Positions 4,050-19,435 of a DNA stretch of 64,000 nucleotides are shown here, in pieces; position 1 is the stretch's first letter, and each line of letters opens with the position of its first letter. The position numbers and the translations under genes were made by a program. The stretch covers positions 9,586 to 73,585 of the forward strand of contig CAZNOF010000001.1 of NCBI GenBank assembly GCA_964574595.1, given 5' to 3'. Source of the stretch: an uncultured Pseudomonadales bacterium (GTDB lineage Bacteria > Patescibacteriota > Microgenomatia > UBA1400 > PJMF01). The notes under the pieces are model-generated. The model saw only the letters and a program-made list of their open reading frames with translations. It was not told where the DNA came from and did not search any database.

Positions 4050-4265
4050 ATGTCAACAAAAACTCGTGGTTTTGCACAAATGAGTAAAGAAAGACAAAAA
4101 GAAATTGCTAGTCGTGGTGGGAAGGCTGCCCATGCAAAGGGCACCGCTCACACATTCAGTTCTGATGAAGCACGACAAGCTGGTAAAAAAGGTGGCCAAG
4201 CGCCTCGTAAAAAAGCTGTTCGCACTTCCAAAGTGACTGAATCTACAACGCAAGCCGGATCATAA
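4050..4265 (+). CDS. KGG-repeat general stress protein (YciG/Con-10-like)
   Basis: RGGKAAHAKG and KKGGQAPRKK repeats. SD AAGGAG upstream. Confidence 0.65.
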   Translation: MSTKTRGFAQMSKERQKEIASRGGKAAHAKGTAHTFSSDEARQAGKKGGQAPRKKAVRTSKVTESTTQAGS

Positions 4266-5000
4266 CGTTTTTTCCAGAATGACGTATTGATTTGTTTGTT
4301 GCTGCTTCCCATCAGCCAAGAATTGTTCGCTAACTGTTAAGTTGGTATCTGCAACCAGACGTGAAAGCTCATCCTTGTCAATTAAATGACAATACCGAAC
4401 AGCTTGTGTTCCTCTATCCCAAGTAAGTAGGTAGTCATTTCGCTCAACATCTTGTGAGTCGAGGCCGATCTCCGCAAACGATTTTTGTCGACTCAACATG
4501 TTGGGAATTTGATCAAATTGCCAGGTTGTAAAGATGAGTAATCCCCCTGGGTTTAGTTGTTTTGCAAGCTGGACTAGTAACTTGGCTCTTTGAGCATACC
4601 CAGGAATGTGATGCAGTACGCCAAACAGGCCAATGAGATCTGCCTGAGTGGCTGGTGGGTTCTTCAAAAGATCTGCCTGAAGAAGATGTAATTTATCTGG
4701 GGGCAAAACTTGAGAAAGTGACTCTTCAGCATCATCGAGTAATTTGCGATTACTATCAGTCCCAAAATACTCAATTGAAAGATCAGTTTCAGTTTCTAGA
4801 AAAGCGCCAAAGCGGCCATTCCCACATCCCACATCCAGCACAGTTATTTCCTTGTTCAATGTGAAGTGAGATTCAAGTAATGGGACAATCCGTTGCCATC
4901 CAGCCCAAGGTTGTTGTCTCGTTTCAGAGAACTCCGCCGCAATTTTGAGATAAAAATCTTGATTTAGCTGGTTTAATTTTTGAATTGTTTGTTCGTCCAT
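4260..5000 (-). CDS. class I SAM-dependent methyltransferase
   Basis: Motif I VLDVGCGNGRFG, motif II LLQADL, post-II GGLLIFTTW. Confidence 0.7.
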   Translation of the reverse strand: MDEQTIQKLNQLNQDFYLKIAAEFSETRQQPWAGWQRIVPLLESHFTLNKEITVLDVGCGNGRFGAFLETETDLSIEYFGTDSNRKLLDDAEESLSQVLPPDKLHLLQADLLKNPPATQADLIGLFGVLHHIPGYAQRAKLLVQLAKQLNPGGLLIFTTWQFDQIPNMLSRQKSFAEIGLDSQDVERNDYLLTWDRGTQAVRYCHLIDKDELSRLVADTNLTVSEQFLADGKQQQTNQYVILEKTL

Positions 5001-5031
5001 ATAATTCAGTTCGATTTATAGGCTATAATGC

Positions 5032-6894
5032 GTGGTTATGCATCTGCCTAGTGATTATAACCTCTATCTGGAGCAACTGGTACCAGTTCTGACTGAAGTT
5101 GCGGCCGCTGAAAGTTGGTCCGCCAAAGATTTAGCGCGAATCTTAAACAAATATCCAAAGCCAGATTCAGGCATTTTCTCTAAAGAGATATTAGTTCAAG
5201 CCTATCGAAAGCTAGCCGGAACCCATGGGTTACCTCCTTATAAAGATGAAGTCATGCAACGCCTCCAAATGAAGCCAACCAGAACCGGCTCTGGAGTGAC
5301 GCCAGTGACAGTTCTGACGAAGCCGTTCCCCTGTCCTGGCAAATGCATCTTTTGTCCAAATGACATCCGCATGCCAAAAAGTTACTTGTCAGATGAGCCA
5401 GGAGCTCAGCGAGCAGAACGGAACTCTTTTGACCCATACCTGCAAACCTATAACCGACTTCAAGCCTTTCAAAATATTGGTCACCAAATTGATAAAGTCG
5501 AGCTGATTATTTTGGGTGGCACTTGGTCATATTACCCAGAGGCTTATCAAATTTGGTTCATCAAAGAATGCTTCCGGGCGCTCAATGACTATGGTGAAAA
5601 AATTGACGACCGGGAACGGATTGAAAACTACTACCATGAAATGCGTGAAAGACTGAAAGAGGTTGAGACTGCCATTAAACATCGACCAGTGCCTGGAAAT
5701 AATCCCGTCATAAATAAGCAGGCAATGCAAGCTTACCAAGTGCATGGTGAAGAGCTTTCCAAGAGCTACAACCAGACTGTTTCTGAAATGTATGTGGCTC
5801 CAGAGAAAATTGGTGGATTTGATCAATATCAAACTGCTGATTGGAGCTCTCTTGAAGCAGAGCAACATCGAAATGAAACTGCCATCTCTCGAAATGTGGG
5901 TTTAGTCATCGAGACTCGCCCAGATAATATTTCAGAAGCTGAGGTCTTGAGAATTCGCCGACTGGGATGCACCAAAACGCAAATCGGATTTCAAAGTTTG
6001 AACGATGCGGTGCTGGACTTGAATAAACGTGGTCACGATGTGGCTGCTACCAGAAGAGCCGTCAAGTTGCTCAGGCAAGCCGGTTTCAAGATTCATGCTC
6101 ATTGGATGCCGAATCTATATGGTTCAAGTGTGGAAATTGATAAGGGTGATTACGATATTCTGTTCAACGATCTTGATTTCAAGCCAGATGAATTGAAGAT
6201 TTATCCTTGCTCACTGATTGAAAGTGCTGAGCTGATGCAGTATTACCAACGTGGTGAGTGGAAGCCTTACTCTGAGCCAGAGCTGCTAGATATCTTGACA
6301 TACTGTTTGACGCATACCCCGCCATTTTGTCGACTGACCCGTGTCATCCGTGATATTCCATCTACGGACATTGTGGTGGGAAACAAAAAAACCAACTTCC
6401 GAGAGATCGCTGAGAAGAAACTGACTGAATTGGGTGAAAAGAGCTCGGATATTCGAGCAAGAGAAATTCGTAAGCAAGAGGTCTCTGCTGAAGATCTGGA
6501 ACTAAACTTGGTGAAGTATGAGACAAGTGTCAGTCATGAAATTTTCCTCCAGTACATTGTCAAAGAATCAGGTAAGCCACCTGAACAGTCAAAAATCGCT
6601 GCCTTTTTACGATTAAGTATTCCCACAGTTCCCAACTTTATTGATGAACTAAAAGATGGCGCGATTATTCGAGAGATTCACGTTTACGGACAAACAGTCG
6701 GAATTGGCAAGAAGACTGAAGGCAAAGCCCAACACCTGGGTTTAGGACAGAAACTGATAGATGAAGCAGTTAAATTAACAAAAGAAGCCGGCCTGCGGAA
6801 GTTAGCTGTGATTTCAGCCATTGGTACTCGCGAGTATTATCGCAAACGGGGCTTCACTAAAGGTTCTCTTTATCAATTTCTGGACTGGGAATAA
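5032..6894 (+). CDS. Elp3-family radical SAM/GNAT protein (tRNA U34 cm5 modification enzyme homolog)
   Basis: Radical-SAM cluster motif CPGKCIFCPN; 620 aa; C-terminal GNAT-like fold (QHLGLGQKLIDEA...YYRKRGF). GTG at 5032 or ATG at 5038 as start. Confidence 0.85.
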   Translation: MVMHLPSDYNLYLEQLVPVLTEVAAAESWSAKDLARILNKYPKPDSGIFSKEILVQAYRKLAGTHGLPPYKDEVMQRLQMKPTRTGSGVTPVTVLTKPFPCPGKCIFCPNDIRMPKSYLSDEPGAQRAERNSFDPYLQTYNRLQAFQNIGHQIDKVELIILGGTWSYYPEAYQIWFIKECFRALNDYGEKIDDRERIENYYHEMRERLKEVETAIKHRPVPGNNPVINKQAMQAYQVHGEELSKSYNQTVSEMYVAPEKIGGFDQYQTADWSSLEAEQHRNETAISRNVGLVIETRPDNISEAEVLRIRRLGCTKTQIGFQSLNDAVLDLNKRGHDVAATRRAVKLLRQAGFKIHAHWMPNLYGSSVEIDKGDYDILFNDLDFKPDELKIYPCSLIESAELMQYYQRGEWKPYSEPELLDILTYCLTHTPPFCRLTRVIRDIPSTDIVVGNKKTNFREIAEKKLTELGEKSSDIRAREIRKQEVSAEDLELNLVKYETSVSHEIFLQYIVKESGKPPEQSKIAAFLRLSIPTVPNFIDELKDGAIIREIHVYGQTVGIGKKTEGKAQHLGLGQKLIDEAVKLTKEAGLRKLAVISAIGTREYYRKRGFTKGSLYQFLDWE

Positions 6895-10370: not shown

Positions 10371-11379
10371 GACTTTCTGGATTTGGTGATTCAGGTGGCT
10401 GAATCACTATGTTAGTGCACAGAATCGAATAGAACTGTTCTTTTAATTCTTCCGTAACAATCATCTCTATAATTCCCTCGTTTGGTTGACCGTAGTAGAT
10501 AACTGCACCCAGTGGAGCGACCAGCGCTAAAATAACGGCTCCTAAGTCCTCCTCACCATGAACTCTGACATGGAACGGTGCTGTAAAAATTGTTTCTCGG
10601 CTTTTAAATAAACTCTCTTGTGTTTCCATTAAATGCTGAACAAATTCTCGACTAATTTGGCCCGCTGGATTTGCGACGCCTTTGTCTTCCTTCACTTGGG
10701 CCAAATTTGGTGACTGAAACATTTGTCGTTGATTGAATCCGTCGTAGACACCGATTTGATACGGCCAATTATTTTGAATGAAAGTCTCTAAGACCATATC
10801 GCCAACAACGTACGTGTAAAGGTAGTGATTGGTGGGTTGAAGCACAACTTGGCCGCGCTTTTCCCTAAAGAATGCTTTCTGCTGATCATTTAACATGACG
10901 CCTTGTTCCAAACACAGTGAATACACTTGACCTTGGCGGTTCACCAGACCCTGGCGAATTCTAGTTGATGAAAGATACTCATTTTTTTGATCACGGAGGA
11001 GTTCACAGACTTCGATTGGCAAGGCGAGCAACTGCAGGTTTACCCGACATTGATTAATAAAGTCGCCGCCAGCCTTGGTCAACTCGGTCACAATAATGGC
11101 TTCTACTGGTGAGCCTTGGAGGGTAGGGCCGCAAGGATCTGCTAAGGGAAAAACTTTTGAGGGAATTTGTTCTTGAGCTAAAAATTGAGTGACATTGGCA
11201 GAGCGCGTTTCAAAAGGTTCGATCATTTGAAAAAACTTTTTGGTTCGTGTCAACTCATTTGTGGTCACTCCGACCCAAATTTCGTCAGCAAGACTGGCCG
11301 CAAACTTCAGAAAAGCCTGATGTCCAGCATGCATGTGGTCAAACGTGCCACCCATTCCAACGATTTTATATTTTTTCAT
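10336..11379 (-). CDS. cytidylyltransferase-like protein (archaeal-type PPAT-like N-domain) fused to a ~190-aa C-terminal domain, possibly DUF359/GTP-dependent dephospho-CoA kinase-like
   Basis: N-terminal GGTFDHMHAGH (HxGH) and ISSTRIR nucleotidyltransferase motifs. C-terminal half has GDMV...VYDG..R and HGEEDL motifs that I recall from DUF359 (unverified). Start overlaps the upstream gene's stop (TAATG). Confidence 0.5.
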   Translation of the reverse strand: MKKYKIVGMGGTFDHMHAGHQAFLKFAASLADEIWVGVTTNELTRTKKFFQMIEPFETRSANVTQFLAQEQIPSKVFPLADPCGPTLQGSPVEAIIVTELTKAGGDFINQCRVNLQLLALPIEVCELLRDQKNEYLSSTRIRQGLVNRQGQVYSLCLEQGVMLNDQQKAFFREKRGQVVLQPTNHYLYTYVVGDMVLETFIQNNWPYQIGVYDGFNQRQMFQSPNLAQVKEDKGVANPAGQISREFVQHLMETQESLFKSRETIFTAPFHVRVHGEEDLGAVILALVAPLGAVIYYGQPNEGIIEMIVTEELKEQFYSILCTNIVIQPPESPNPESLKPLPGGVGLG

Positions 11380-13316
11380 TAGCCTGCTCCTCCGCCACCG
11401 CCGCCACCACCACCTCCTCCGCCTCCAGATGATCCACCTGAAGACCCAACCCCAGCGGCGCCGTAGCTAGAGGTTACAGCAGTTGAAAGAGAATTTAAAG
11501 CGGTACCTACAGATTCAAAGCTACTGCCAAATGACTGTGCCCCGTTTCCAGAACTGGAGAAGCCGCCCCAATACCCAACGAGCATTGCTTGATCGGCGGC
11601 AGAAAATTGCACGGGTAGCTGAGACAGTGCCTTCATCGAAATGCCCAGCACAGTGCCATACACTAAATATTTTTCCCAGAGAATAATCGAGTCGATCGGG
11701 TAATTTTTTGTTGATTGATAATCGTCCATGTGCTTTTTAAATGCGTTCCACTCAGCAGCTTGTTGATTGCCACTGTCAGTTCGTTTTTCACCGTTCAGAT
11801 AGATGAGGATTGCTAATATAAAAGCAACCACACCTAATCCCACTCCCAAAAATCCAGCTAGTACTAATACTCCATTGCCATATTCTCCACCCAATCCTAC
11901 AAAGACGAAATTGACCCAGCCGATCAGCATTCCGACTACGCCTAAAAGCAACCGAGCTTTCGTTTCGTGAGCTGTTTTGTCTAAGAGGTGAGTCTCTAGG
12001 TTTGTTTGCAGAGTAAGCTCACTGAGATCTTTGAAGAATTGATTGGAAGAGACAGTATTACTTTTGCAGTAGCTGACAATGTCTTTTAAGGCCACTACCG
12101 TCTTCTCTTTTCCTTCGAGAGAGTGTTGAGTTGCGCCAACATTGTCAAACAAGAAACTGAGCACTTCACTTTCAAAGGCATTTGGTTTGTACTTGGGCTT
12201 GGGTTGGGCTTCTAAGTAATAGGCATATTCTTTAAAGATAAGTCCTTCTGGTTGATCAGAACGCAAGATTTTCAGTACACGATGTTGAACGAGCGAAAGC
12301 ACCAGGGCGGTGAATGATTTGGGGGTTAACTCACTACTAAGGGAGAGTAGTTGCTCGACCTGTGGAGGAGGTAGTTCACTAGGTGGATCCCACAATGTTC
12401 CAGAGAAATTTACGGCTGGTGGAGTGGGTTCTTTGTGAATAGCAAAGAAGCGCCGCACTTCTTTGATGATAAGCCAGAACAATCCAATTGAGGCAATGAC
12501 CGACACAGTAGTCAGGAACCAGCTAGTGAGTCTTCTTTGTGCTTTGAGAGCCTTGGTGTCATTAATAAAGCCTTGTTCTTGCTGATTAATTTGGGTTTCA
12601 GTTAAACTACCGGCACTTCCTTCAGGGAAAAGTGATTTGGGCAACAAGATTCTACCCTCAAAGTAGGTCTTTGAAGGGAGATTTGGGACGGAAAAAGTGA
12701 CCAGAGTGGCAGTTGGAATCGAGACGGTGCCATCAAGTGGGCCATGCAGCCAGGCTTTTATTTGATCATTAGGAATGCCTGCTGGCAAATTGACAGAAAC
12801 AGAGACCCTCCCCTGACTGTGATCCCAATCATTTCCTATGAATTGCCAATAGAGTTCTGAGTTGTCTGGATCAACCGTAACTGCATTTTGAACTGTGTAA
12901 CTCGTGGTAAAGGTTTTCACTTCCGAGTGAGCGCTGTAAAACCATTTGAGATAATACTGACTGCCTTGATCTTCCACATAGAAAGCGTTTGTCTCTTCTT
13001 GTCCGGGTCTCACTTGGGTATAGCAGACGGTTTCATCACAAACTTTGAAGTTTTTGACAATGTACGGCTCTGTCCGGCCGGGGTTTTTGGTGGTGTCAGG
13101 GTCCTTGAGAATCGTTTGGTAGGCAAAGGTGAAGCTGCCGGAGAAATCGTACGTTCGCTTCTCCTCCACTGTCATGCTGCCATCAGTGTGCAAGGTGGCG
13201 TTGGTGGTTACAGATGTGATTTCATAAGACTTGGAGGCGGCGGACACAGAGTTGGGAAAAATCAGTCCCAGGCTAAGAGTCAATAAAAAAGCGCTCAAAA
13301 TCAGAACTTTCTTCAT
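11379..13316 (-). CDS. DUF2207-like membrane protein with C-terminal poly-Gly tail
   Basis: Signal peptide, large extracytoplasmic N-domain, several TM helices, Ser/Gly tail ending GGGGGGGGGGGGGAG. Architecture typical of DUF2207. Confidence 0.65.
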   Translation of the reverse strand: MKKVLILSAFLLTLSLGLIFPNSVSAASKSYEITSVTTNATLHTDGSMTVEEKRTYDFSGSFTFAYQTILKDPDTTKNPGRTEPYIVKNFKVCDETVCYTQVRPGQEETNAFYVEDQGSQYYLKWFYSAHSEVKTFTTSYTVQNAVTVDPDNSELYWQFIGNDWDHSQGRVSVSVNLPAGIPNDQIKAWLHGPLDGTVSIPTATLVTFSVPNLPSKTYFEGRILLPKSLFPEGSAGSLTETQINQQEQGFINDTKALKAQRRLTSWFLTTVSVIASIGLFWLIIKEVRRFFAIHKEPTPPAVNFSGTLWDPPSELPPPQVEQLLSLSSELTPKSFTALVLSLVQHRVLKILRSDQPEGLIFKEYAYYLEAQPKPKYKPNAFESEVLSFLFDNVGATQHSLEGKEKTVVALKDIVSYCKSNTVSSNQFFKDLSELTLQTNLETHLLDKTAHETKARLLLGVVGMLIGWVNFVFVGLGGEYGNGVLVLAGFLGVGLGVVAFILAILIYLNGEKRTDSGNQQAAEWNAFKKHMDDYQSTKNYPIDSIILWEKYLVYGTVLGISMKALSQLPVQFSAADQAMLVGYWGGFSSSGNGAQSFGSSFESVGTALNSLSTAVTSSYGAAGVGSSGGSSGGGGGGGGGGGGGAG

Positions 13317-13379
13317 TAATCATATCTTTGCAGACCAGAGGTGAATTGTCAAAGTGGAAGTGATATAATTTCAAACATT

Positions 13380-13461
13380 GCCGAAGTGGTGAAATGGTAG
13401 ACACGTCAGACTTAAAATCTGATGCCTTAACAGCGTGAGGGTTCGAGTCCCTCCTTCGGCA
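13380..13461 (+). tRNA. tRNA-Leu (anticodon TAA), long variable arm
   Basis: Acceptor GCCGAAG/CTTCGGC+A, anticodon loop CTTAAAA, long variable arm, T-loop TTCGAGT. Extended -10 TGATATAAT about 20 nt upstream. Confidence 0.8.
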
Positions 13462-13477
13462 CAAGAATATATAGAAA

Positions 13478-13508
13478 CGGACAGGAGTTAATACCCCTGT
13501 CCGTTTTT
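13478..13508. terminator. bidirectional intrinsic terminator
   Basis: CGGACAGG...CCTGTCCG stem followed by TTTTT, preceded by an A-run. Confidence 0.5.
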
Positions 13509-13515
13509 GGAACTG

Positions 13516-13899
13516 CTACTGTTTTTTGTACTCATCGAGGTCCGCCATCCGGAAGAAAAAATCCGGGTTATCGGCAGTTGAATCGATAAGACTTTGGTCC
13601 AGCTTTTCCCCATCAAAATCCATACTGGCACCCTTCTTGAGGACGACAGTGATCACACCTCTCGGGAAAACAGAAAGCGAATCAACCGAGTCATTCGAGA
13701 GCAGTGCGAGTACTGCTGTGCGAATCATCGTGAAGTTGTCTCCGTATCCTGCGAGCATGTAGTCGTAGATCAGGATGTCCCCACGAAAGTGGGTGTTGTT
13801 GTAAGTAGCGGCCGCTTCACCATCGCACAAAATGTCATAAACTCTTGTCCGACCGTTTGCGAATCGCTTTACTACAAATTCTCTTCTCTCAGAAGCCAT
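13516..13899 (-). CDS. hypothetical protein
   Basis: 127-aa ORF between two tRNA genes. No family recognised. Confidence 0.4.
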   Translation of the reverse strand: MASERREFVVKRFANGRTRVYDILCDGEAAATYNNTHFRGDILIYDYMLAGYGDNFTMIRTAVLALLSNDSVDSLSVFPRGVITVVLKKGASMDFDGEKLDQSLIDSTADNPDFFFRMADLDEYKKQ

Positions 13900-14075
13900 T
13901 GTAATTACTCCATGATAAGGATTAAACAGTTCTATCAGTTTGAGACGTGTTAAGGTGCAAAAAAGATTGTCTCAAACGTACTTATTATATCATTTTGCCA
14001 GATTTACGTCAGGATTTTCATTTTCTCAACGAAGAAAATCAAAAGTACGCTATAATATGAAGTCTTGTGTGAAGT

Positions 14076-14149
14076 CGGGGAATAGCTCAGATGGCTAGAG
14101 CGCGCGGTTTGGGACCGCGAGGCCGCAGGTTCGAGTCCTGTTTCCCCGA
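14076..14149 (+). tRNA. tRNA-Pro (anticodon TGG)
   Basis: Acceptor CGGGGAA/TTCCCCG+A, D-arm GCTCAGATGGCTAGAGC, anticodon loop TTTGGGA, T-loop TTCGAGT. TATAATATGA -10 box at 14051. Confidence 0.85.
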
Positions 14150-14312
14150 CAATTTGAACTAATTGGCTAATACGAATTATCATTCTTAGTTCATTGAACT
14201 AGGAGTTTCTGAGTTTAGAGAGGTTTCAGTTCAGTTGAGTAGGACTCTTTTAACTCAAATCTCAAATAGTTCAGATTAATTGAGTTACCATTGAACTAAT
14301 GACTCAACGTCA

Positions 14313-15059
14313 TTAATTATGTAGTTTAGGTTCAATTTCCTTTATTGACCTGACAAAACTTGAAAGTCTAGAAAGCCTTTTCTGGGATAATTCTAGATCC
14401 GAAAAACTGGTTATTGTACTCACAATGTTTTTGATACTGCCATGGGTTTTATCATACTTTAATCCTACATTTCCAAATAATCTTGCCAAAGATTCATATG
14501 GGTGAAAAATTGAACTTAGATCGTCTACTGTTATATCCATCTTCAGCTCATCCGAAATATATTTCTCATTGAGCTTATCGCTGAGTATTGGAAATAGGTG
14601 ATAAAAAGCTAAAAACCACGCTTCAATCTCCATCATGGCAAAATGAAAATCAATCTTTTCTTGTTTTATTTTTGCAATTTCAGAGAGAATACTATTTTCT
14701 ATTAGAGACGTAACTGTTGGGTTGACTACGCCAGGTGGAAAGCGTCTTTTTTTTAATTCATTTTTATATGTTTCGCAATAAATGTCCCTAAGGCAGATGA
14801 CCTTTTCATATCGTTCAAAGAAAGATGAGGAGCTATTCTTAAGCATGCTTACTAGCTTGTTATCACCATCTGCTATGAATATTCGAAAAGTTATGAGTGG
14901 TTCGGCTCCTTCATATTTGTGAACATAAAAATCTGATTTGAAATTTTGAAATTTGAGAGGGTCGATAATTATATTAATATTTTTATATAAGATGAGAATG
15001 ATATGGTGAATAAAAATAGCTTCAGCATAGCCTTCTACACAAATAGCAATGGTGCGCAT
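14313..15059 (-). CDS. Toprim-like protein (DUF4276/OLD-family-like), second gene of a candidate ATPase-nuclease defense pair
   Basis: N-terminal ICVEGYAE (VEGxxE Toprim Glu motif), FIADGDN (DxD motif), later MEIEAWFLA. 16-nt gap to the upstream ATPase gene. ~30% GC. Confidence 0.5.
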   Translation of the reverse strand: MRTIAICVEGYAEAIFIHHIILILYKNINIIIDPLKFQNFKSDFYVHKYEGAEPLITFRIFIADGDNKLVSMLKNSSSSFFERYEKVICLRDIYCETYKNELKKRRFPPGVVNPTVTSLIENSILSEIAKIKQEKIDFHFAMMEIEAWFLAFYHLFPILSDKLNEKYISDELKMDITVDDLSSIFHPYESLARLFGNVGLKYDKTHGSIKNIVSTITSFSDLELSQKRLSRLSSFVRSIKEIEPKLHN

Positions 15060-15075
15060 AGAGATTTAATCCAGT

Positions 15076-16182
15076 TTATTTTAGGAAATCGGAACTAAAG
15101 AGATCAAAGTTATTTAATCCCGTGAGCTCGAACTCTTCGAAAATTTTTGGTTTATTTTCATTACTAAAACTCGAGACCGTATCACCATGTCTCGCCAAGA
15201 TTACAATCTCATCTAATGAAACGGCATTTGCTAGGAATTGATCATTTGTAGTAGCTACAATCTGTATGTCTGCAGTTTCTGTTTTTACTTTTAAGAGCTT
15301 GGCTAATCTGTTTGCTCTTTCGAAATCTAAATCGGAGCCCAGATCGTCTATGAAAATAGATATTGTTCCTTTTTCAATTCTTGCCTTCAATAAATATTGA
15401 ATAGCCATTAGCAGTGATAAGACACCATACATACCTGAAGACATCTCCGGCTGAGGTATAGGATATTTAACGTCTTTTTCCTTGATGAATAATACCTTCG
15501 GTGAAAAGGCGGCATGTACTATACTTTGCAATAGGTTCTTACTTATTTTTTCAATATTAAAACCCACAAAGTTTAAATCATCTATTATTTTATTTATATC
15601 TTCGCTTTCTAATTTATCCCAGTATTCAGAAATGAGTTGTAACGAAGGCAAATCTGGTAATTTTGCTGTATTCATAAATAAGGAAATGCTACTGGGATTA
15701 AGGCCTGAAGAAAAACTATAGGACACTGAGTTTTCAGCCCATTCATACAAATTCTCAAAAAAAGGATATTCCTTTTCATCTCTTCTAATATGGAGAACTA
15801 ATTTATCTTTTGGGGGGTTGATAATAATGAAATCTTTAATAATTTCTGAAAAAAGCTTTGCTTCAGATACATTTCTAACTAATTTTGTTTTCCCATTAAC
15901 AACTATTTTCTCTTCCTCGATAATTCCATCTTTAATGGAACAACAATATTTATATATGTCATCTCCATTGGAAAAATCTGCGTCCCATTCTCCATTTGAG
16001 AATTTAGTTTGATTTGTTATTAACTGAGTTAATCCTGTGATTAGGCGATGGAATTTGCTTTTCCCAGTAGAATTTTTACCCATGATCAAAGAAAGATTTT
16101 TAAGGAAAGTATCTTCTAATTTCCACGCATTCTGTTTTGGCGTGTTAATATTTTCTTGGTACCTGATTCGCTTTAATTTCAT
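15076..16182 (-). CDS. ABC-type (AAA_21/AAA_15-like) ATPase, first gene of the candidate defense pair
   Basis: Walker A GKNSTGKS, signature-like PQPEMSSGM, Walker B ISIFIDDLGSDLD, H-loop IVATTND. Very AT-rich. Confidence 0.7.
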   Translation of the reverse strand: MKLKRIRYQENINTPKQNAWKLEDTFLKNLSLIMGKNSTGKSKFHRLITGLTQLITNQTKFSNGEWDADFSNGDDIYKYCCSIKDGIIEEEKIVVNGKTKLVRNVSEAKLFSEIIKDFIIINPPKDKLVLHIRRDEKEYPFFENLYEWAENSVSYSFSSGLNPSSISLFMNTAKLPDLPSLQLISEYWDKLESEDINKIIDDLNFVGFNIEKISKNLLQSIVHAAFSPKVLFIKEKDVKYPIPQPEMSSGMYGVLSLLMAIQYLLKARIEKGTISIFIDDLGSDLDFERANRLAKLLKVKTETADIQIVATTNDQFLANAVSLDEIVILARHGDTVSSFSNENKPKIFEEFELTGLNNFDLFSSDFLK

Positions 16183-16350
16183 ACTACATATTCTATTCTA
16201 TTTCTTTCAAAAAACATTATGTGTTCTTAAGCATACTTTCTATATAAATTTCTCTTATTACTTCCTAGATTTTGCTTGTGAATTTCTCAGGAGAGCTGAT
16301 CTAGTCTGGTGAACTACTAATTCGAAAACCGTTTCTTCTAGACAAAAGTG

Positions 16351-16376
16351 AAAAAGCCAGCGAAAGCTGGTTTTTC
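16351..16376. terminator. bidirectional intrinsic terminator
   Basis: AAAAA-GCCAGC-GAAA-GCTGG-TTTTT. Confidence 0.5.
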
Positions 16377-16380
16377 TCTA

Positions 16381-17055
16381 CTACAAATAACACTCCACAT
16401 CGAAAAATCTGATGGATCCATAGTCAGTAACTCGTGAGAGAGTGATGCCATCTAAAGAAACTTGTTTGATACTTAAAGAATTGTGTAAGTTGTGTAGGAG
16501 CTGAGTAGCTCTTTCTTCCAAACCTCTGGCTAATTGATTGAGTTCTGCCCCGCGCGAAAAGCCTCGCTCTTTCATCAAAACTTGTTCAATCGACTCTCGC
16601 AATGGCGCAAGTTCATAGCTGCGGATGAATTCTTGTCCGGTGAGTGCTCGCATTTCAATATCCGCCACGACGGCATCTACATAGAGTTTGACATCAATTG
16701 TCCGACCTTTTCCCTCAGCTCTGAAACCGTACTTGGTATAGAAATTATGGTCTGGCAAACCGAGATTAATGACTTTACCGGAGCTTGGGAATTCGACGTA
16801 TGAACCGCCATGAACTATGACTCCTGCAGATTTAAGAACATCACTCGACAGGAGCTTTTTCTTCATGTATTCAGAGAGATCATGAGCAGTATCGACAGAC
16901 TCTTCAGCTGCCTCATTTGCGGCATGTTCAATTTGTTCTGGAACTCCTTCCTCTCCTTCTGTTCCCTTTTTAATTCCATTTTTTAAGAAATTAAGCCACT
17001 TCTTGAGCTCATTTTCATCTTTTTTTGGTTCTTCTGAGTGTTCACTTTCGTGCAT
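16381..17055 (-). CDS. hypothetical protein (acidic N-terminus)
   Basis: 224-aa ORF. No recognisable family. Confidence 0.45.
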   Translation of the reverse strand: MHESEHSEEPKKDENELKKWLNFLKNGIKKGTEGEEGVPEQIEHAANEAAEESVDTAHDLSEYMKKKLLSSDVLKSAGVIVHGGSYVEFPSSGKVINLGLPDHNFYTKYGFRAEGKGRTIDVKLYVDAVVADIEMRALTGQEFIRSYELAPLRESIEQVLMKERGFSRGAELNQLARGLEERATQLLHNLHNSLSIKQVSLDGITLSRVTDYGSIRFFDVECYL

Positions 17056-17090
17056 GTTTTTCAGTATAGCGAGTATAATTCGTCATATCT

Positions 17091-17630
17091 ATGTCATCAT
17101 TTAACTACATCACAGAAATCCAGAAAATAATTGATAGTAAGGAACTTGTTGAAGTTCGTGTCTACAGCAATCCCGGAATGTTTAACGTGGCCTACGTACT
17201 GGGAGCGAACCAGGAATTCTTAGTGCTGGCTGAAATCGATCCTAAGGCACACCTCGACGGAGTCTGTGTGTATCAAATGGACAATGTCATTTCAATAAAA
17301 CAAAACACGCCCTATCTCGCCAAGTTTTCGCAAAAAATTTCTGGTACTGCCCAGTATGACCAGGCTTACAAGGACTTTGAGGCATTAAGTGATCTAACTT
17401 TTGAAGGGTTCATTTCTGCTTTTGAAGGTAAAGATACACTGGTAGAAGTGCTTTGCGATGGTGGTGAGACTGTGGCTGGCAAGATTTTCGCTCATGATGA
17501 GCATATCTTGGTGCTTTCCGAGCTTGATAGCAAAAAAGGCACGACAGACGGAACAACCTACCTTAATAAGGATTCGATCATCAGACTTTCTACAGATGTG
17601 CCTTGGGTGAACAAACTGATCAAGAAATAA
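17091..17630 (+). CDS. hypothetical protein with internal tandem duplication
   Basis: 179-aa ORF. Two ~80-aa halves share VEV.....FLVL.E.D-type segments. Confidence 0.45.
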   Translation: MSSFNYITEIQKIIDSKELVEVRVYSNPGMFNVAYVLGANQEFLVLAEIDPKAHLDGVCVYQMDNVISIKQNTPYLAKFSQKISGTAQYDQAYKDFEALSDLTFEGFISAFEGKDTLVEVLCDGGETVAGKIFAHDEHILVLSELDSKKGTTDGTTYLNKDSIIRLSTDVPWVNKLIKK

Positions 17631-17664
17631 AATAGGCTGAGTCCTGCGACCCAGCCTATGACCA

Positions 17665-17919
17665 TCAGTTGAAGAAAATCGGCCATAGAAACACCGAGAA
17701 AAAGATCCAGCCTAAAAGACTGAACGTTGCCCCGGAAACATAACTAAACCAATCTTCTTTCTTCTCTCTTAAAACGTAGGTGACAATAAGACCACCCAGA
17801 ATCGAAATAATCGGCCAAAGGATGGGCGGTATTTCTATCAGGGCTGTTGTCACACCGAGGCCAGCTCCAAAGGAAATGGCCAACAGCGTTCTGAGTATCA
17901 TTTGTTCACTCCTCAGCAA
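17665..17919 (-). CDS. small membrane protein
   Basis: 84 aa, three hydrophobic helices. Confidence 0.35.
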   Translation of the reverse strand: MLRSEQMILRTLLAISFGAGLGVTTALIEIPPILWPIISILGGLIVTYVLREKKEDWFSYVSGATFSLLGWIFFSVFLWPIFFN

Positions 17920-18038
17920 ACTAATCCAATTGATACATCAATATTATATCACTGTTACAGCTGCTTGGTCATTTATTGGATTTCCATTCACTTGTGAAGA
18001 GTATATATTGGAGATATTAGTTGCGATAAAAGGATCAT

Positions 18039-18851
18039 ATGTTCGATTTTGGGCGTGAAATCTTGAAGAAAGTAACGGGTAAAGAAAACGACAAGGCGCT
18101 TGTCACTCAAGTTGACTCAGGTATTGCTTCCGGAATGAAGGTTGATGTTAAAAGGTACGACGATCAGAAGCATGTTTCTCTTGATGAGAAGAATCCCAAA
18201 TACATCGAAGTGAAAAAAGTGCTTGAAGAAAAACTGAAAATCCATAATGGTGACCCAATTATTTTATCCTTGATTACTGCTCTTTCTTTGTATGATAACG
18301 GTGGAATCGGAATCCAGCATATGAACGAAGATGGCCTGACGTTCCTAACTGCAGAAGAAGTGCAGAATGTGGTGGATCCTGTGCATGACCTCGCGATTGG
18401 GACAGGTGTATTAATTAGGTTAGATGAGAAAAAAGCAATCTCCTCAGTGGCTGAAATTGACACATTCTCTATGGTTGATTTGTCTCAAGCTCTGACTGGA
18501 ATTGAACCAGTTGACTTGCCTGCATTAGCAACAAGAACAGACATTAATTTTAGTTTAACGAATAAAAATACACCCGCTTTGCAATCCGATTCAACTCCCA
18601 TTGTCGAGATCGAAGAAGTGAAAGGAGATGCTGAACACGTAAAAGTGCGAATAGGCATCTATGAATTTACGTTTAAAGCGACTCAAGAAGGGACGTTAAA
18701 GGTACATGACAAATTGGTAATACATGTAAAGGATCCGGATATAAGCTTTTTGCAAGATCCGAAAAACATTGACGGGATTTATAAAGTAGGCTCAACCATC
18801 GTAAAGCGAGATGGAACTGATCCAAAGCCAACTCAGCCGCAACTCCTCTAA
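18039..18851 (+). CDS. hypothetical protein
   Basis: 270-aa ORF. No family recognised. Confidence 0.45.
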   Translation: MFDFGREILKKVTGKENDKALVTQVDSGIASGMKVDVKRYDDQKHVSLDEKNPKYIEVKKVLEEKLKIHNGDPIILSLITALSLYDNGGIGIQHMNEDGLTFLTAEEVQNVVDPVHDLAIGTGVLIRLDEKKAISSVAEIDTFSMVDLSQALTGIEPVDLPALATRTDINFSLTNKNTPALQSDSTPIVEIEEVKGDAEHVKVRIGIYEFTFKATQEGTLKVHDKLVIHVKDPDISFLQDPKNIDGIYKVGSTIVKRDGTDPKPTQPQLL

Positions 18852-18917
18852 ATTGAACCATATCCCCCCTTCTTTCGAACAATTGGTAAGGTTATACTTG
18901 GTCGAGGAGGAAGACAT

Positions 18918-19181
18918 ATGACAAACCCACTAGACAACCGGATTCCCGGTGATATCACTGAGTTAGAAGATTTAGTCAATGGCGTCACTCCAGAAGATGA
19001 CGACTTAGAAAAAGATGGTGAAGCCGGCATTGGCTCTTCCGAAACAGATTTAGAAGCAGATGACGATGTCAGTGAATTTGCTCAACAAGTTGGCATCGGC
19101 TCAGATGACGATGATGAAGCCCGACCGCTGAACATTGCGCGTGATGTTGAAATTGCCGAAAAAATTCACCGAAATAAATAG
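18918..19181 (+). CDS. small highly acidic protein
   Basis: 87 aa rich in Asp/Glu. GGAGGAAG SD upstream. Confidence 0.4.
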   Translation: MTNPLDNRIPGDITELEDLVNGVTPEDDDLEKDGEAGIGSSETDLEADDDVSEFAQQVGIGSDDDDEARPLNIARDVEIAEKIHRNK

Positions 19182-19199
19182 GTATATAATAGTAGCTCA

Positions 19200-19435
19200 T
19201 TCATAATTGAAAATTATCCGCCTGAGGAAGAGTCGCGTCTTCCAATTCTTCTCACAAGAAGCGGATCTTTGCAAAATCAAAGACGGGTCAGCCCGAGACA
19301 GCTGAGACCTCTACTCCATTAACTAGAGCGCAGGTTGCAAAGTCTACTTTGGTAACAAGGTAGAAAATAAGGGTGGTACCGCATTAACACTAATGCCCCT
19401 TTTGTTTCTTTATTAGAAGCAGAAGGGGTTTTTTT
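19200..19435 (+). promoter_or_regulatory. structured 5' leader ending in a terminator/SD-sequestering hairpin that abuts the start codon (candidate riboswitch or attenuator)
   Basis: TATATAAT -10 at ~19185. ~235-nt untranslated leader with several local hairpins. 9-bp stem CCCCTTTTG/CAGAAGGGG (19396-19428) followed by TTTTTTT running directly into ATG 19436. The only SD-like GAAGG lies in the 3' arm of the stem. Confidence 0.4.

Follow-up and report, generated by a model that had tools for sequence, protein, structure and literature searches.

What is encoded by the AT-rich islet of two genes that adjoins tRNA-Pro, and could it serve as a defence against phages? A first-pass annotation of the window (the whole stretch of DNA that was analysed, 64,000 nucleotides in length) had described a candidate PARIS/OLD/Gabija-like module in which an ABC ATPase is paired with a Toprim-like protein. 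The features of the locus are as follows.

14076..14150, plus strand: tRNA-Pro (anticodon tgg), intact, the left boundary of the islet (ARAGORN; Rfam tRNA, 66 bits)
14151..14312, minus strand: AT-rich spacer of 162 nt, presumed 3' UTR of the operon (sequence, motif scan and RNA fold)
14313..15059, minus strand: Toprim-fold effector gene, 248 aa, a divergent member of the DUF4276 family and putative metal-dependent nuclease
15060..15075, minus strand: intergenic spacer of 16 nt between the ATPase and partner genes, which fits operonic coupling
15076..16182, minus strand: ABC-type ATPase gene of the AAA_21 family, 368 aa, a putative sensor or regulator
16183..16356, minus strand: AT-rich region 5' of the ATPase gene, the expected promoter site (sequence)
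16357..16370, minus strand: hairpin resembling an intrinsic terminator of the adjoining 224-aa gene (16381..17055) and bounding the islet on the right; the GC fraction is ~0.44 from ~16400

Both open reading frames lie on the minus strand, bounded by tRNA-Pro on one side and by the next gene's terminator on the other, exactly as the co-directional pair of 368 and 248 aa with a 16-nt gap had been described. The tRNA is encoded on the plus strand, and the 3' end of the operon therefore faces the 3' end of the tRNA across the 162-nt spacer. A motif scan of this spacer found four copies of [A/T]TTGAACTA, and three hairpins are predicted. The minimum free energy of its RNA fold is -36.8 kcal/mol (z = -3.35), and none of 200 shuffled sequences folded equally well. 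A terminator, a stabiliser or the relic of an element end are candidate roles for the spacer. An Rfam scan of positions 13200-17200 detected two tRNAs and nothing else.

The islet (14151-16356) has a GC fraction of 0.322 (z = -7.7), compared with 0.429 ± 0.014 (minimum 0.398) for the other 574 windows of 2.2 kb. The sharp departure of a block of about 30% GC from its flanks is thus borne out, and the composition is strongly deviant rather than normal, the latter having been named as a ground for doubting a foreign origin. GC3 is 0.29 in both islet genes versus 0.40 ± 0.04, and the tetranucleotide distance of 0.464 exceeds that of every other window (0.205 ± 0.03, maximum 0.319). The same AT shift of the pair relative to its flanks was found in 70 of 71 homologous loci; low GC is therefore a property of the cassette throughout the family, and by itself does not date the acquisition. 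The foreign composition that was initially taken as a sign of horizontal transfer consequently stands as a deviation, but not as a clock.

The position next to a tRNA gene was examined in the same manner. The islet contains only the two open reading frames and no integrase or recombinase gene, as had been noted at the outset. The last 22 nt of tRNA-Pro have no second match in the whole window with up to three mismatches, and the repeat search of the window gave no repeat family that involves the tRNA-Pro gene and no att-type repeat. Adjacency to a tRNA was found in 1 of 60 loci and was rejected as a trait of the family. For the neighbouring 224-aa gene, no relatives were detected in the metagenome scan. 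The flanking DUF2207 gene has its best homologue, at 42% identity, in Candidatus Woesebacteria; the best relatives of this gene, at 42-44% identity, share no gene order with this locus. The cassette was probably acquired horizontally in this genome.

The 368-aa product matches Pfam AAA_21 (PF13304) with 41.3 bits and an E-value of 2.7e-10, over residues 33-312 and profile positions 4-297 of 304. The gathering cutoff for this family is 27 bits, and the proposed AAA_21-style ATPase therefore has the significant ABC ATPase profile match whose absence would have spoken against it. All four motifs read from the translation are present: Walker A (G35-KNSTGK-S42, GKNSTGKS), the signature (S248-S-G-M251), the Walker B segment IFIDDLGSDLD and IVATTND. 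The register of these motifs was set by alignment to Rad50. D279 is the Walker B aspartate, D280 falls at the expected catalytic glutamate and D286 is the D-loop residue. The segment IVATTND had been labelled an H-loop; the motif is there, but N313 occupies the position of the histidine. Residues G40, K41, S248, G250 and D279 are found in all 83 homologues, and so are D280 and N313, which align with the Walker B glutamate and H-loop histidine of Rad50. Weak matches to Rad50, SMC and RecF were also obtained. A total of 71 homologues were recovered for the ATPase, and its 368 residues compare with 363-372 in homologues.

In canonical ABC ATPases, efficient hydrolysis of ATP requires the catalytic glutamate after the Walker B aspartate and the histidine of the H-loop. 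Both are absent here, and the protein may therefore not hydrolyse ATP at all. The universal replacement of glutamate by aspartate and of histidine by asparagine suggests that nucleotide binding and dimerisation, and not fast hydrolysis, would be the regulatory step.

The 248-aa partner (median of 239 in homologues) was predicted by AlphaFold2 from an alignment of 131 sequences with a pLDDT of 93.8 and a pTM of 0.90; the single-sequence model has a pLDDT of 38. The predicted structure is a three-layer alpha/beta fold with a central parallel sheet that resembles known Toprim domains, and the sole confident Foldseek match among viral structures is an RloB-like protein. DUF4276 and RloB are both placed in the Toprim superfamily (PMC12065111). 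The window protein itself scores 21.8 bits against Pfam DUF4276 (PF14103), with an E-value of 2.6e-4, which is below the gathering cutoff of 30.2; for two close homologues the scores are 21.4 and 25.1 bits. At the level of the family, DUF4276 is matched by 118 of 131 members at E <= 0.01 (best 9.4e-14), and OLD-like_TOPRIM by 16 of 131. The profile of the partner aligns to a Stenotrophomonas partner, which itself matches DUF4276 at E <= 1e-5, with an hhalign probability of 99.95% (E = 2e-37). Assignment of the partner to the Toprim type is thus upheld by family-level homology and by fold.

The candidate active-site residues of the partner are E9, E13, D66, D92, E144, E146 and K204. The motif VEGyaE (residues 8-13) includes E9, which follows a strand at 2-8 and is kept in 73 of 74 homologues, and E13, kept in 70 of 74. 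The motif DGD (residues 64-66) follows a strand at 56-62; D66 is retained in 64 of 74 sequences, and position 64 is glycine in 47 of 74. Both motifs named in the first-pass annotation are therefore present, but DGD does not represent a conserved DxD. The aspartate D92, located after beta-4, is found in 74 of 74 homologues and, from its conservation in the alignment, may substitute for the non-conserved first aspartate of DxD. Position 144 is threonine in three homologues. Since the first Toprim DxD aspartate is not conserved, nuclease activity is plausible and not assured.

The partner appeared to be an orphan in a word-indexed homologue search, which returned only the protein itself. This was refuted by an exhaustive HMMER scan, in which the homologues of the partner numbered at least 522 (representatives of clusters); a relative of the ATPase is encoded in at least 450 species-genome stretches. 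The proteins had been thought highly divergent, which holds for the partner relative to the DUF4276 cutoff but does not make either protein an orphan. Hosts include Patescibacteria, Chlamydiae, Bacteroidota, Planctomycetota, Chloroflexota and Proteobacteria, with copies in Stenotrophomonas, Aquipseudomonas, Bacteroides and Chitinophaga among others. In 80 of 83 loci drawn from many phyla, the gene that immediately follows the ATPase in the same orientation encodes the partner. The gap between the two genes in homologous loci has a median of -4 nt, and an overlap of 4 nt is the commonest arrangement (36 of 77). In several loci the partner is seemingly split (for example L024, L034, L057, L068 and L086).

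The neighbours of the pair vary. An MmeI-type restriction-modification (RM) system, Mrr, an OLD nuclease and a toxin-antitoxin pair surround it in L085, a Zot prophage and MksBEF in L002, a serine recombinase in L001 and a SymE toxin in L084. A type IIG RM gene adjoins the pair in L032 and priA in L087, and several homologous loci are surrounded by ordinary genes or polysaccharide loci and have no defence genes nearby. Inspection of the called genes in six neighbourhoods showed no recurrent third gene. The 50,697 phage records searched contained no homologue, so that carriage by phages was rejected within this collection, and carriage by plasmids is rare (2 of 72,556 records). The distribution of the pair is patchy, compositionally foreign and partly within defence islands or mobile elements.

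These results point to a self-contained, two-gene conflict module of a split OLD-like type as the probable identity of the islet, in which an AAA_21 ABC-fold ATPase is co-translated with a putative nuclease of the DUF4276 Toprim lineage. From comparison with related systems, we infer an anti-phage activity for the cassette. By analogy with PARIS, AbiL and the AAA/TOPRIM_OLD pairs of NetFlax, an oligomer of the ATPase would keep the nuclease inactive and serve as the sensor of infection, and a trigger derived from the phage would free or activate the nuclease. The freed nuclease could then cut nucleic acid of the host, the phage or both (DNA, or tRNA/rRNA), and the infection would be aborted. 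The ATPase would be regulated through nucleotide binding and dimerisation instead of rapid turnover.

A more specific version of this proposal is possible, and we offer it tentatively. The pair may form a distinct and widespread split OLD-like clade below curated thresholds, whose degenerate Asp/Asn ATPase would sense infection by ATP binding and dimerisation or through nucleotide levels. This ATPase would control a Toprim nuclease whose metal site has been rewired, in which xxD, an extra invariant aspartate and ExE take the place of DxD. The cassette would then be among the few abortive-infection-type defences in CPR/Patescibacteria.

The cassette could instead be a toxin-antitoxin or addiction module, with a Toprim toxin and an ATPase antitoxin, that is selfish or stabilises mobile DNA and has no dedicated role against phages. 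Pairs of an AAA antitoxin and a TOPRIM_OLD toxin have been validated by NetFlax, and AbiLii is a toxic effector (PMC10440598). The tight overlap of the genes, the patchy and AT-shifted distribution with a partner that is sometimes decayed, the toxin-antitoxin and SymE neighbours in L085 and L084, and the failure of a tested HEC-01 representative to defend are all consistent with such a module. A toxin-antitoxin role and one in abortive infection are compatible, however, and the related AAA/Toprim pairs AbiL and PARIS do defend. Moreover, addiction modules are expected on plasmids and phages, where the pair is rare and absent, respectively, in the collections searched. We consider an addiction role with no dedicated anti-phage function unlikely.

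A second alternative is that the pair is a stranded accessory sub-module with little or no function of its own, comparable to Mad3/Mad4 in MADS or RloA/RloB in type I RM loci. Mad4, a DUF4276 protein, and the Mad3 ATPase work inside an eight-gene system, HEC-01 was discovered within Hma systems, a few members of the families match the mad3 or mad4 models, and RM genes adjoin the pair in two loci. Against this stand the absence of a recurrent third gene in the inspected neighbourhoods and the persistence of the pair across many phyla. Many loci have neither an RM nor a defence neighbour, and every invariant residue is kept in both genes of the window. A stranded sub-module is thus quite unlikely.

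It is also conceivable, but very unlikely, that the islet is an inert relic of a single acquisition whose expression or function has since been lost. Neither a promoter nor a Shine-Dalgarno sequence could be convincingly made out upstream; the promoter scan of 16183..16356 returned 14 sites versus 10.3 ± 3.4 in shuffled sequences, which is not an enrichment, and none of the sites was convincing. No mobility gene is present, and the unameliorated composition fits a recent arrival and silence alike. Both reading frames are nevertheless of full length when compared with their homologues and retain all of the invariant catalytic residues, and decay elsewhere in the family is visible as a split partner. 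A housekeeping role in DNA transactions (repair, recombination or the cell cycle) is the least probable reading of all. In its favour are the weak matches of the ATPase to Rad50, SMC and RecF, the presence of priA beside the pair in one locus and the precedent of the archaeal OLD-family ATPase Cran1 for a non-defence role (PMC12796447). Against it, the phyletic distribution is sporadic, the AT shift is nearly universal, some partners are pseudogenised, the neighbourhoods are variable and often contain defence or mobile genes, and gene order is not shared with the closest relatives of the host's flanking DUF2207 gene.

A conflict module with a split OLD-like architecture is therefore retained as the preferred reading. 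Split ABC-ATPase/Toprim modules such as PARIS, AbiL, HEC-01 and Mad3/4 are a growing theme in prokaryotic immunity, and the DUF4276 branch is not known to be active on its own. The locus points to a large and tightly linked clade within this branch. Since the window clade scores beneath the DUF4276 cutoff and the HEC-01 models of PADLOC match it only weakly, current defence catalogues probably under-count it. The invariant loss of the hydrolytic glutamate and histidine in the ATPase provides a handle on sensing that is driven by binding as opposed to turnover. A candidate abortive-infection system is also added to a CPR-like, Woesebacteria-related genome, from a group regarded as having few of the known defence systems.

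The cassette is a divergent clade, and HEC-01 is the nearest of the named systems. HEC-01 likewise consists of two genes, with a small TOPRIM protein (HEC-01B) encoded separately after an ABC ATPase (HEC-01A). Nearly all PADLOC matches of the partner family are to the HEC-01B models (92 of 131 members), and these are weak, with a best E-value of 2.3e-10; the HEC-01A models match 17 of 30 ATPases, also weakly. The ATPase of the window scores 27.6 bits against HEC-01A (E = 3.4e-7) over the C-terminal third. Its partner scores 14.7 bits against HEC-01B (E = 0.004) and has no PADLOC match at E <= 1e-3. HEC-01 is a PADLOC candidate found embedded in Hma systems (Payne et al., bioRxiv 10.1101/2024.01.29.577857), as its name "Hma-embedded candidate 01" indicates, whereas the cassette of the window is not within an Hma system. 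The one representative of HEC-01 that was tested gave no protection against any phage tried (bioRxiv 10.1101/2024.01.29.577857).

AbiL shares the bicistronic arrangement of an ATPase and a Toprim-like effector (Lactococcus AbiLi and AbiLii) and is cited in PMC10440598 as an abortive-infection system shown by experiment. Of the PADLOC models, AbiLi scores highest against the window ATPase (62.9 bits, followed by a generic AriA model at 48.9 and HEC-01A) and is matched by 30 of 30 family members, but the match is partial (model positions 76-254 of 326). Membership in AbiL was rejected because the window partner matches neither AbiLii nor RloB, which are matched by 1 and 2 of the 131 family members, respectively. 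The profile searches suggested earlier for the partner thus succeeded with DUF4276 at the family level and gave no match for the window protein with DUF4435 or RloB.

PARIS, the mechanism of which is described in PMC11464382, combines the ABC ATPase AriA with AriB, a DUF4435 Toprim nuclease. The window partner is of the DUF4276 type, and DUF4435 (PF14491) was found neither in it nor in any of the 131 family members; membership in PARIS was therefore rejected. AriA is 464 aa long in the solved chains and carries the insertions IS1 and IS2, whereas the window ATPase has 368 aa and differs in the Asp/Asn at the catalytic Glu/His positions. The AriA model PDLC02980 matches the window ATPase and PDLC02979 does not; at 304 positions, PDLC02980 is as long as Pfam AAA_21 and hence looks generic. 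AriA from the PDB matches the ATPase around Walker A only (E = 0.02-0.03). PDB sequence searches with both family profiles gave nothing significant, with weak motif-level matches to Rad50 and AriA at E-values up to 10. PH0156 of Pyrococcus horikoshii (PDB 2p62), an uncharacterised structural-genomics protein, is 16-19% identical and has no assigned function.

The OLD proteins of classes 1-3 (P2 Old, Ts OLD, and Bp OLD / GajA) each consist of one polypeptide chain, with the UvrD-like helicase GajB as an adjacent extra component in class 2. The islet contains two separate open reading frames and no helicase, so that membership in OLD/Gabija was rejected; GajA models align over 45-70 residues only, with 13-21 bits. 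Resemblances to Bp OLD are found at the active site of the partner. Residues E9 and E13 are spaced i, i+4 like E400 and E404, E144-x-E146, where the helical part begins, resembles T506-x-E508, and K204 is the candidate equivalent of K562. In Bp OLD, however, the first DxD aspartate ligates metal A; the window family lacks this residue as a conserved position and has the extra invariant D92. Sequence similarity is negligible, with an hhalign probability of 3.5% against a full OLD nuclease and an alignment at the VEGxTE motif only ("VEGdTE" in OLD).

For the MADS system of Pseudomonas aeruginosa, PMC12065111 names Mad4 as a homologue of DUF4276, and deletion of mad3 or mad4 weakens defence (bioRxiv 10.1101/2023.03.30.534895). 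The mad3 and mad4 models match a few members of the two families (mad4, 4 of 131 partners), and MADS is an eight-gene, methylation-associated system, whereas the window pair stands alone. With a DUF4276-type partner that is neither DUF4435 nor fused, the module is neither PARIS nor OLD/Gabija. Of the original PARIS/OLD/Gabija-like proposal, the split ATPase/Toprim pair survives; the DUF4435 domain and the fused polypeptide are absent. The cassette belongs with the OLD/PARIS/AbiL/HEC-01 anti-phage systems as a widespread, horizontally scattered relative of putative function. It does not overturn the current understanding of these systems, which it matches in architecture and in likely logic.

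The AT-rich islet beside tRNA-Pro carries an ATPase gene and a partner gene, with the features arranged as follows.

14076..14150, plus strand, tRNA-Pro(tgg) (Rfam, 66 bits)
14313..15059, minus strand, partner ORF, 248 aa
15076..16182, minus strand, ATPase ORF, 368 aa
16357-16370, terminator-like hairpin at the end of the neighbouring 224-aa gene

The first-pass annotation described two co-directional ORFs next to tRNA-Pro; both were found on the minus strand, with a 16-nt gap from the ATPase ORF to the partner ORF, and every motif quoted for the two proteins is present. Because the ORFs lie on the minus strand and the tRNA on the plus strand, the operon 3′ end faces the tRNA-Pro 3′ end, across a spacer of 162 nt. 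The hairpin on one side and tRNA-Pro on the other delimit a foreign block of approximately 14151-16356. As had been claimed, its composition departs from that of the flanks: islet GC is 0.322 versus 0.429 ± 0.014 (minimum 0.398) in the rest of the window (2.2-kb windows; z = -7.7). GC3 is 0.29 in the two genes versus 0.40 ± 0.04 in 35 other long ORFs, and the tetranucleotide distance is 0.464 versus 0.205 ± 0.03 (maximum 0.319) in the rest of the window. The islet is a strong compositional outlier, and by composition its DNA is foreign.

The spacer between the partner stop codon and tRNA-Pro (14151-14312) contains four copies of [A/T]TTGAACTA inside 150 nt, and two of the three exact copies of ATTGAACTA in the window. 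As minus-strand RNA it is predicted to form three hairpins (MFE -36.8 kcal/mol, z = -3.35), and none of 200 shuffles folds as well. The spacer may act as a terminator or as a 3′ UTR element, or it may be what is left of the end of a mobile element.

The ATPase was matched to Pfam AAA_21 at 41.3 bits (gathering score 27), in agreement with the AAA_21-style ABC ATPase first proposed, and more weakly to SMC_N and ABC_tran. The top PADLOC model is AbiLi (62.9 bits, part of the model covered). The AriA model PDLC02980 gives 48.9 bits and looks generic, since its length of 304 positions is that of Pfam AAA_21; the HEC-01A and GajA models match the C-terminal third only. By word-indexed search, 71 homologues were retrieved, 250-440 aa long and mostly 350-395 aa; scanning a single genome from each species gave at least 450 stretches that code for a relative. 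Among the hosts are Patescibacteria, Saccharibacteria, Parachlamydiales, Cloacimonadota, Bacteroidota, Nitrospirota, Planctomycetota, Chloroflexota, and Proteobacteria.

The motif register was set by profile alignment of the ATPase family to the Pyrococcus Rad50 head domain. The Rad50 signature LSGGE, Walker B LLILDE, and H-loop VSHD appear in the family profile as lSqGm, iliDD, and tsNd, respectively. This register places Asp (D280) at the catalytic-Glu site and Asn (N313) at the H-loop-His site. The IVATTND motif proposed as an H-loop is therefore present, but with Asn at the His position. D280 and N313 are found in 83/83 sequences from independent loci, as are Walker A G40/K41, signature S248/G250, and D-loop D286. 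Replacement of Glu by Asp with loss of His is the pattern of "degenerate" ABC sites, such as those of TAP1 and CFTR NBD1, which bind ATP and hydrolyze it poorly. By analogy, the ATPase site is probably likewise degenerate, binding ATP with poor hydrolysis, and turnover may be absent.

The partner alone scores 21.8 bits against Pfam DUF4276 (cutoff 30.2) and marginally, at 14.7 bits, against the PADLOC HEC-01B models. The word-indexed search returned no protein besides the partner itself. Exhaustive scanning of 1.84 billion representatives with HMMER provided 522 homologues at E ≤ 1e-3, of which 166 reach E ≤ 1e-10; the homologues are almost all full-length, at 235-255 aa. Among 131 aligned members, matches to DUF4276 (best E 9.4e-14), OLD-like_TOPRIM, and RloB appear in 118, 16, and 2, respectively. 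The family profile aligns with a Stenotrophomonas partner, for which a DUF4276 match is recorded at E ≤ 1e-5, with a probability of 99.95%. The DUF4276 matches and this alignment identify the family as a divergent DUF4276 branch. DUF4276 and RloB were assigned independently to the Toprim superfamily in a 2025 analysis (PMC12065111).

The AlphaFold model of the partner, built from the 131-sequence alignment, is confident (pLDDT 93.8, pTM 0.90), and the Toprim-like assignment of the first-pass annotation is upheld. Five strands alternate with helices and are followed by a helical C-terminal half. Structural comparison gave scores of 10.8 for PH0156 (uncharacterised, 2p62), 10.0 for the Bp OLD C-terminal region (6nk8; 165 residues aligned), 9.0 for GajA (8u7i), 8.9 for Ts OLD (6p74), and 8.2 for AriB (8v46_D). 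An RloB-like protein is the sole confident match in the viral structure library.

Catalytic-type residues are conserved among 74 independent partners: E9 (73), E13 (70; Asp in 3 more), D66 (64), D92 (74), E144 (69; Thr in 3 more), E146 (72), and K204 (70). The two-metal site of Bp OLD comprises E400, E404, D455-x-D457, T506-x-E508, and K562, with T506-x-E508 contributed by the helical domain's first helix (PMC6755086). The partner resembles Bp OLD in the identical i, i+4 spacing of two Glu after β1, in an E/T-x-E motif directly after the last strand, and in a conserved Lys within the helical half; residue order and secondary structure suggest a mapping of one site onto the other. In 47/74 partners, however, Gly stands in place of the first Asp of DxD, which in Bp OLD binds metal A directly. 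The DGD motif first noted occurs in the window protein but is consequently not characteristic of the family. After β4, the invariant D92 may compensate for the missing Asp.

Linkage was examined in 83 fetched loci, whose six-frame ORFs were searched with the two family profiles. In 80 loci the partner lies immediately downstream of the ATPase and is read from the same strand; two of the three misses, L003 and L072, are at contig ends. In the third, L032 (1211-7308), no Toprim partner accompanies the ATPase, which has a type IIG RM-like gene beside it; the effector has perhaps been lost or replaced. Downstream of this ATPase come ~330 nt without coding sequence, then an ORF of 381 aa and one of 1042 aa, the latter with a type IIG RM-like methyltransferase motif. 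The commonest spacing is a 4-nt overlap (36/77 loci; median -4). The partner is apparently split in several loci, including L086. L027 has ATPase-Toprim modules in tandem: immediately upstream of the main pair is a second, very distant pair of an ATPase and a partner-like protein (4176-5902), which score 29 and 17 bits against the family profiles.

Neighbourhoods vary between genomes. Around the pair in L085 are an MmeI-type RM system and Mrr, together with an OLD nuclease and a TA pair. In L002 the neighbours are MksBEF and a prophage of Zot type, in L001 an HTH gene and a large gene for a serine recombinase with Resolvase and Recombinase domains, and in L084 a SymE toxin. Neighbours elsewhere are ordinary or for polysaccharide synthesis. 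The pair lies within or next to capsular/exopolysaccharide loci in several hosts (L091 5983-7774, L086 8001-9795, L001 1-2000). In Bacteroides finegoldii (L091, NZ_OY725969.1) a tyrosine kinase and a sugar transporter flank the pair, which lies downstream of a UpxY antiterminator and runs co-directionally with the polysaccharide locus. Such placement may reflect either hitch-hiking at a hotspot or a link in function. The distribution is patchy and foreign-looking: GC of the pair is below that of the flanks in 70/71 loci (mean difference 0.099), no copy appears in 50,697 phage records, and two plasmid records only carry one.

A tRNA adjoins the pair in only 1/60 related loci. The tRNA-Pro gene belongs to no repeat family, and the relatives found are all too distant to supply an empty site for comparison. 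The proposal of a horizontally acquired islet at a tRNA holds for the foreign composition, but a second copy of the tRNA 3′ end was not found; no integrase was found in the islet either, as originally remarked. That the cassette is of horizontal origin is well supported; how and when it reached this genome is not.

The flanking DUF2207 membrane protein (11379-13316) terminates in ~25 residues that are Gly almost throughout. The best homologue of this protein, at 42% identity, comes from Candidatus Woesebacteria, a relationship that puts the host with CPR/Microgenomates-like bacteria. Right of the islet (16381-19200), small ORFs of 224, 179, 84, 270, and 87 aa have host-like GC. The 224-, 179-, and 270-aa ORFs gave no Pfam match above threshold, and the 224-aa protein had no relative in the metagenome scan. 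Between tRNA-Leu and tRNA-Pro, a 127-aa orphan ORF (13516-13899) has an unusually high GC3 (0.547 versus 0.40 ± 0.04), deviating oppositely to the islet.

By analogy with characterized systems, an ATPase oligomer would restrain the nuclease and sense infection, a trigger would free or activate the nuclease, and nucleic acid cleavage would lead to abortive infection. In PARIS, AriB is released from the AriA scaffold and cleaves tRNA-Lys (PMC11464382). Further precedents are AbiL and the NetFlax AAA / TOPRIM_OLD toxin-antitoxin pairs (PMC10440598). Another is MADS, in which deletion of mad3 or mad4 weakens defence (bioRxiv 10.1101/2023.03.30.534895). HEC-01 calls for caution: its sole tested representative protected against 0 phages tried (bioRxiv 10.1101/2024.01.29.577857).

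Membership in AbiL was rejected because the partner is not RloB/AbiLii, in OLD or Gabija because the genes are unfused and a GajB helicase is absent, and in PARIS because DUF4435 is absent and the ATPase has 368 aa versus 464 aa for AriA. Of the PARIS/OLD/Gabija-like candidate initially put forward, the split ATPase-Toprim module is retained, but not membership in any of the three. The nearest named system is HEC-01, an ABC ATPase + Toprim candidate whose model matches to the cassette are too weak for a membership call. The clade is large, poorly caught by current models, and found here in a CPR-like genome. Its sequences point to two family-wide peculiarities, an apparently degenerate ATPase site and a putatively rewired Toprim acidic cluster. 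The cassette is a split OLD-like ATPase-Toprim module of the DUF4276 branch, of which the architecture and probable logic are already familiar.
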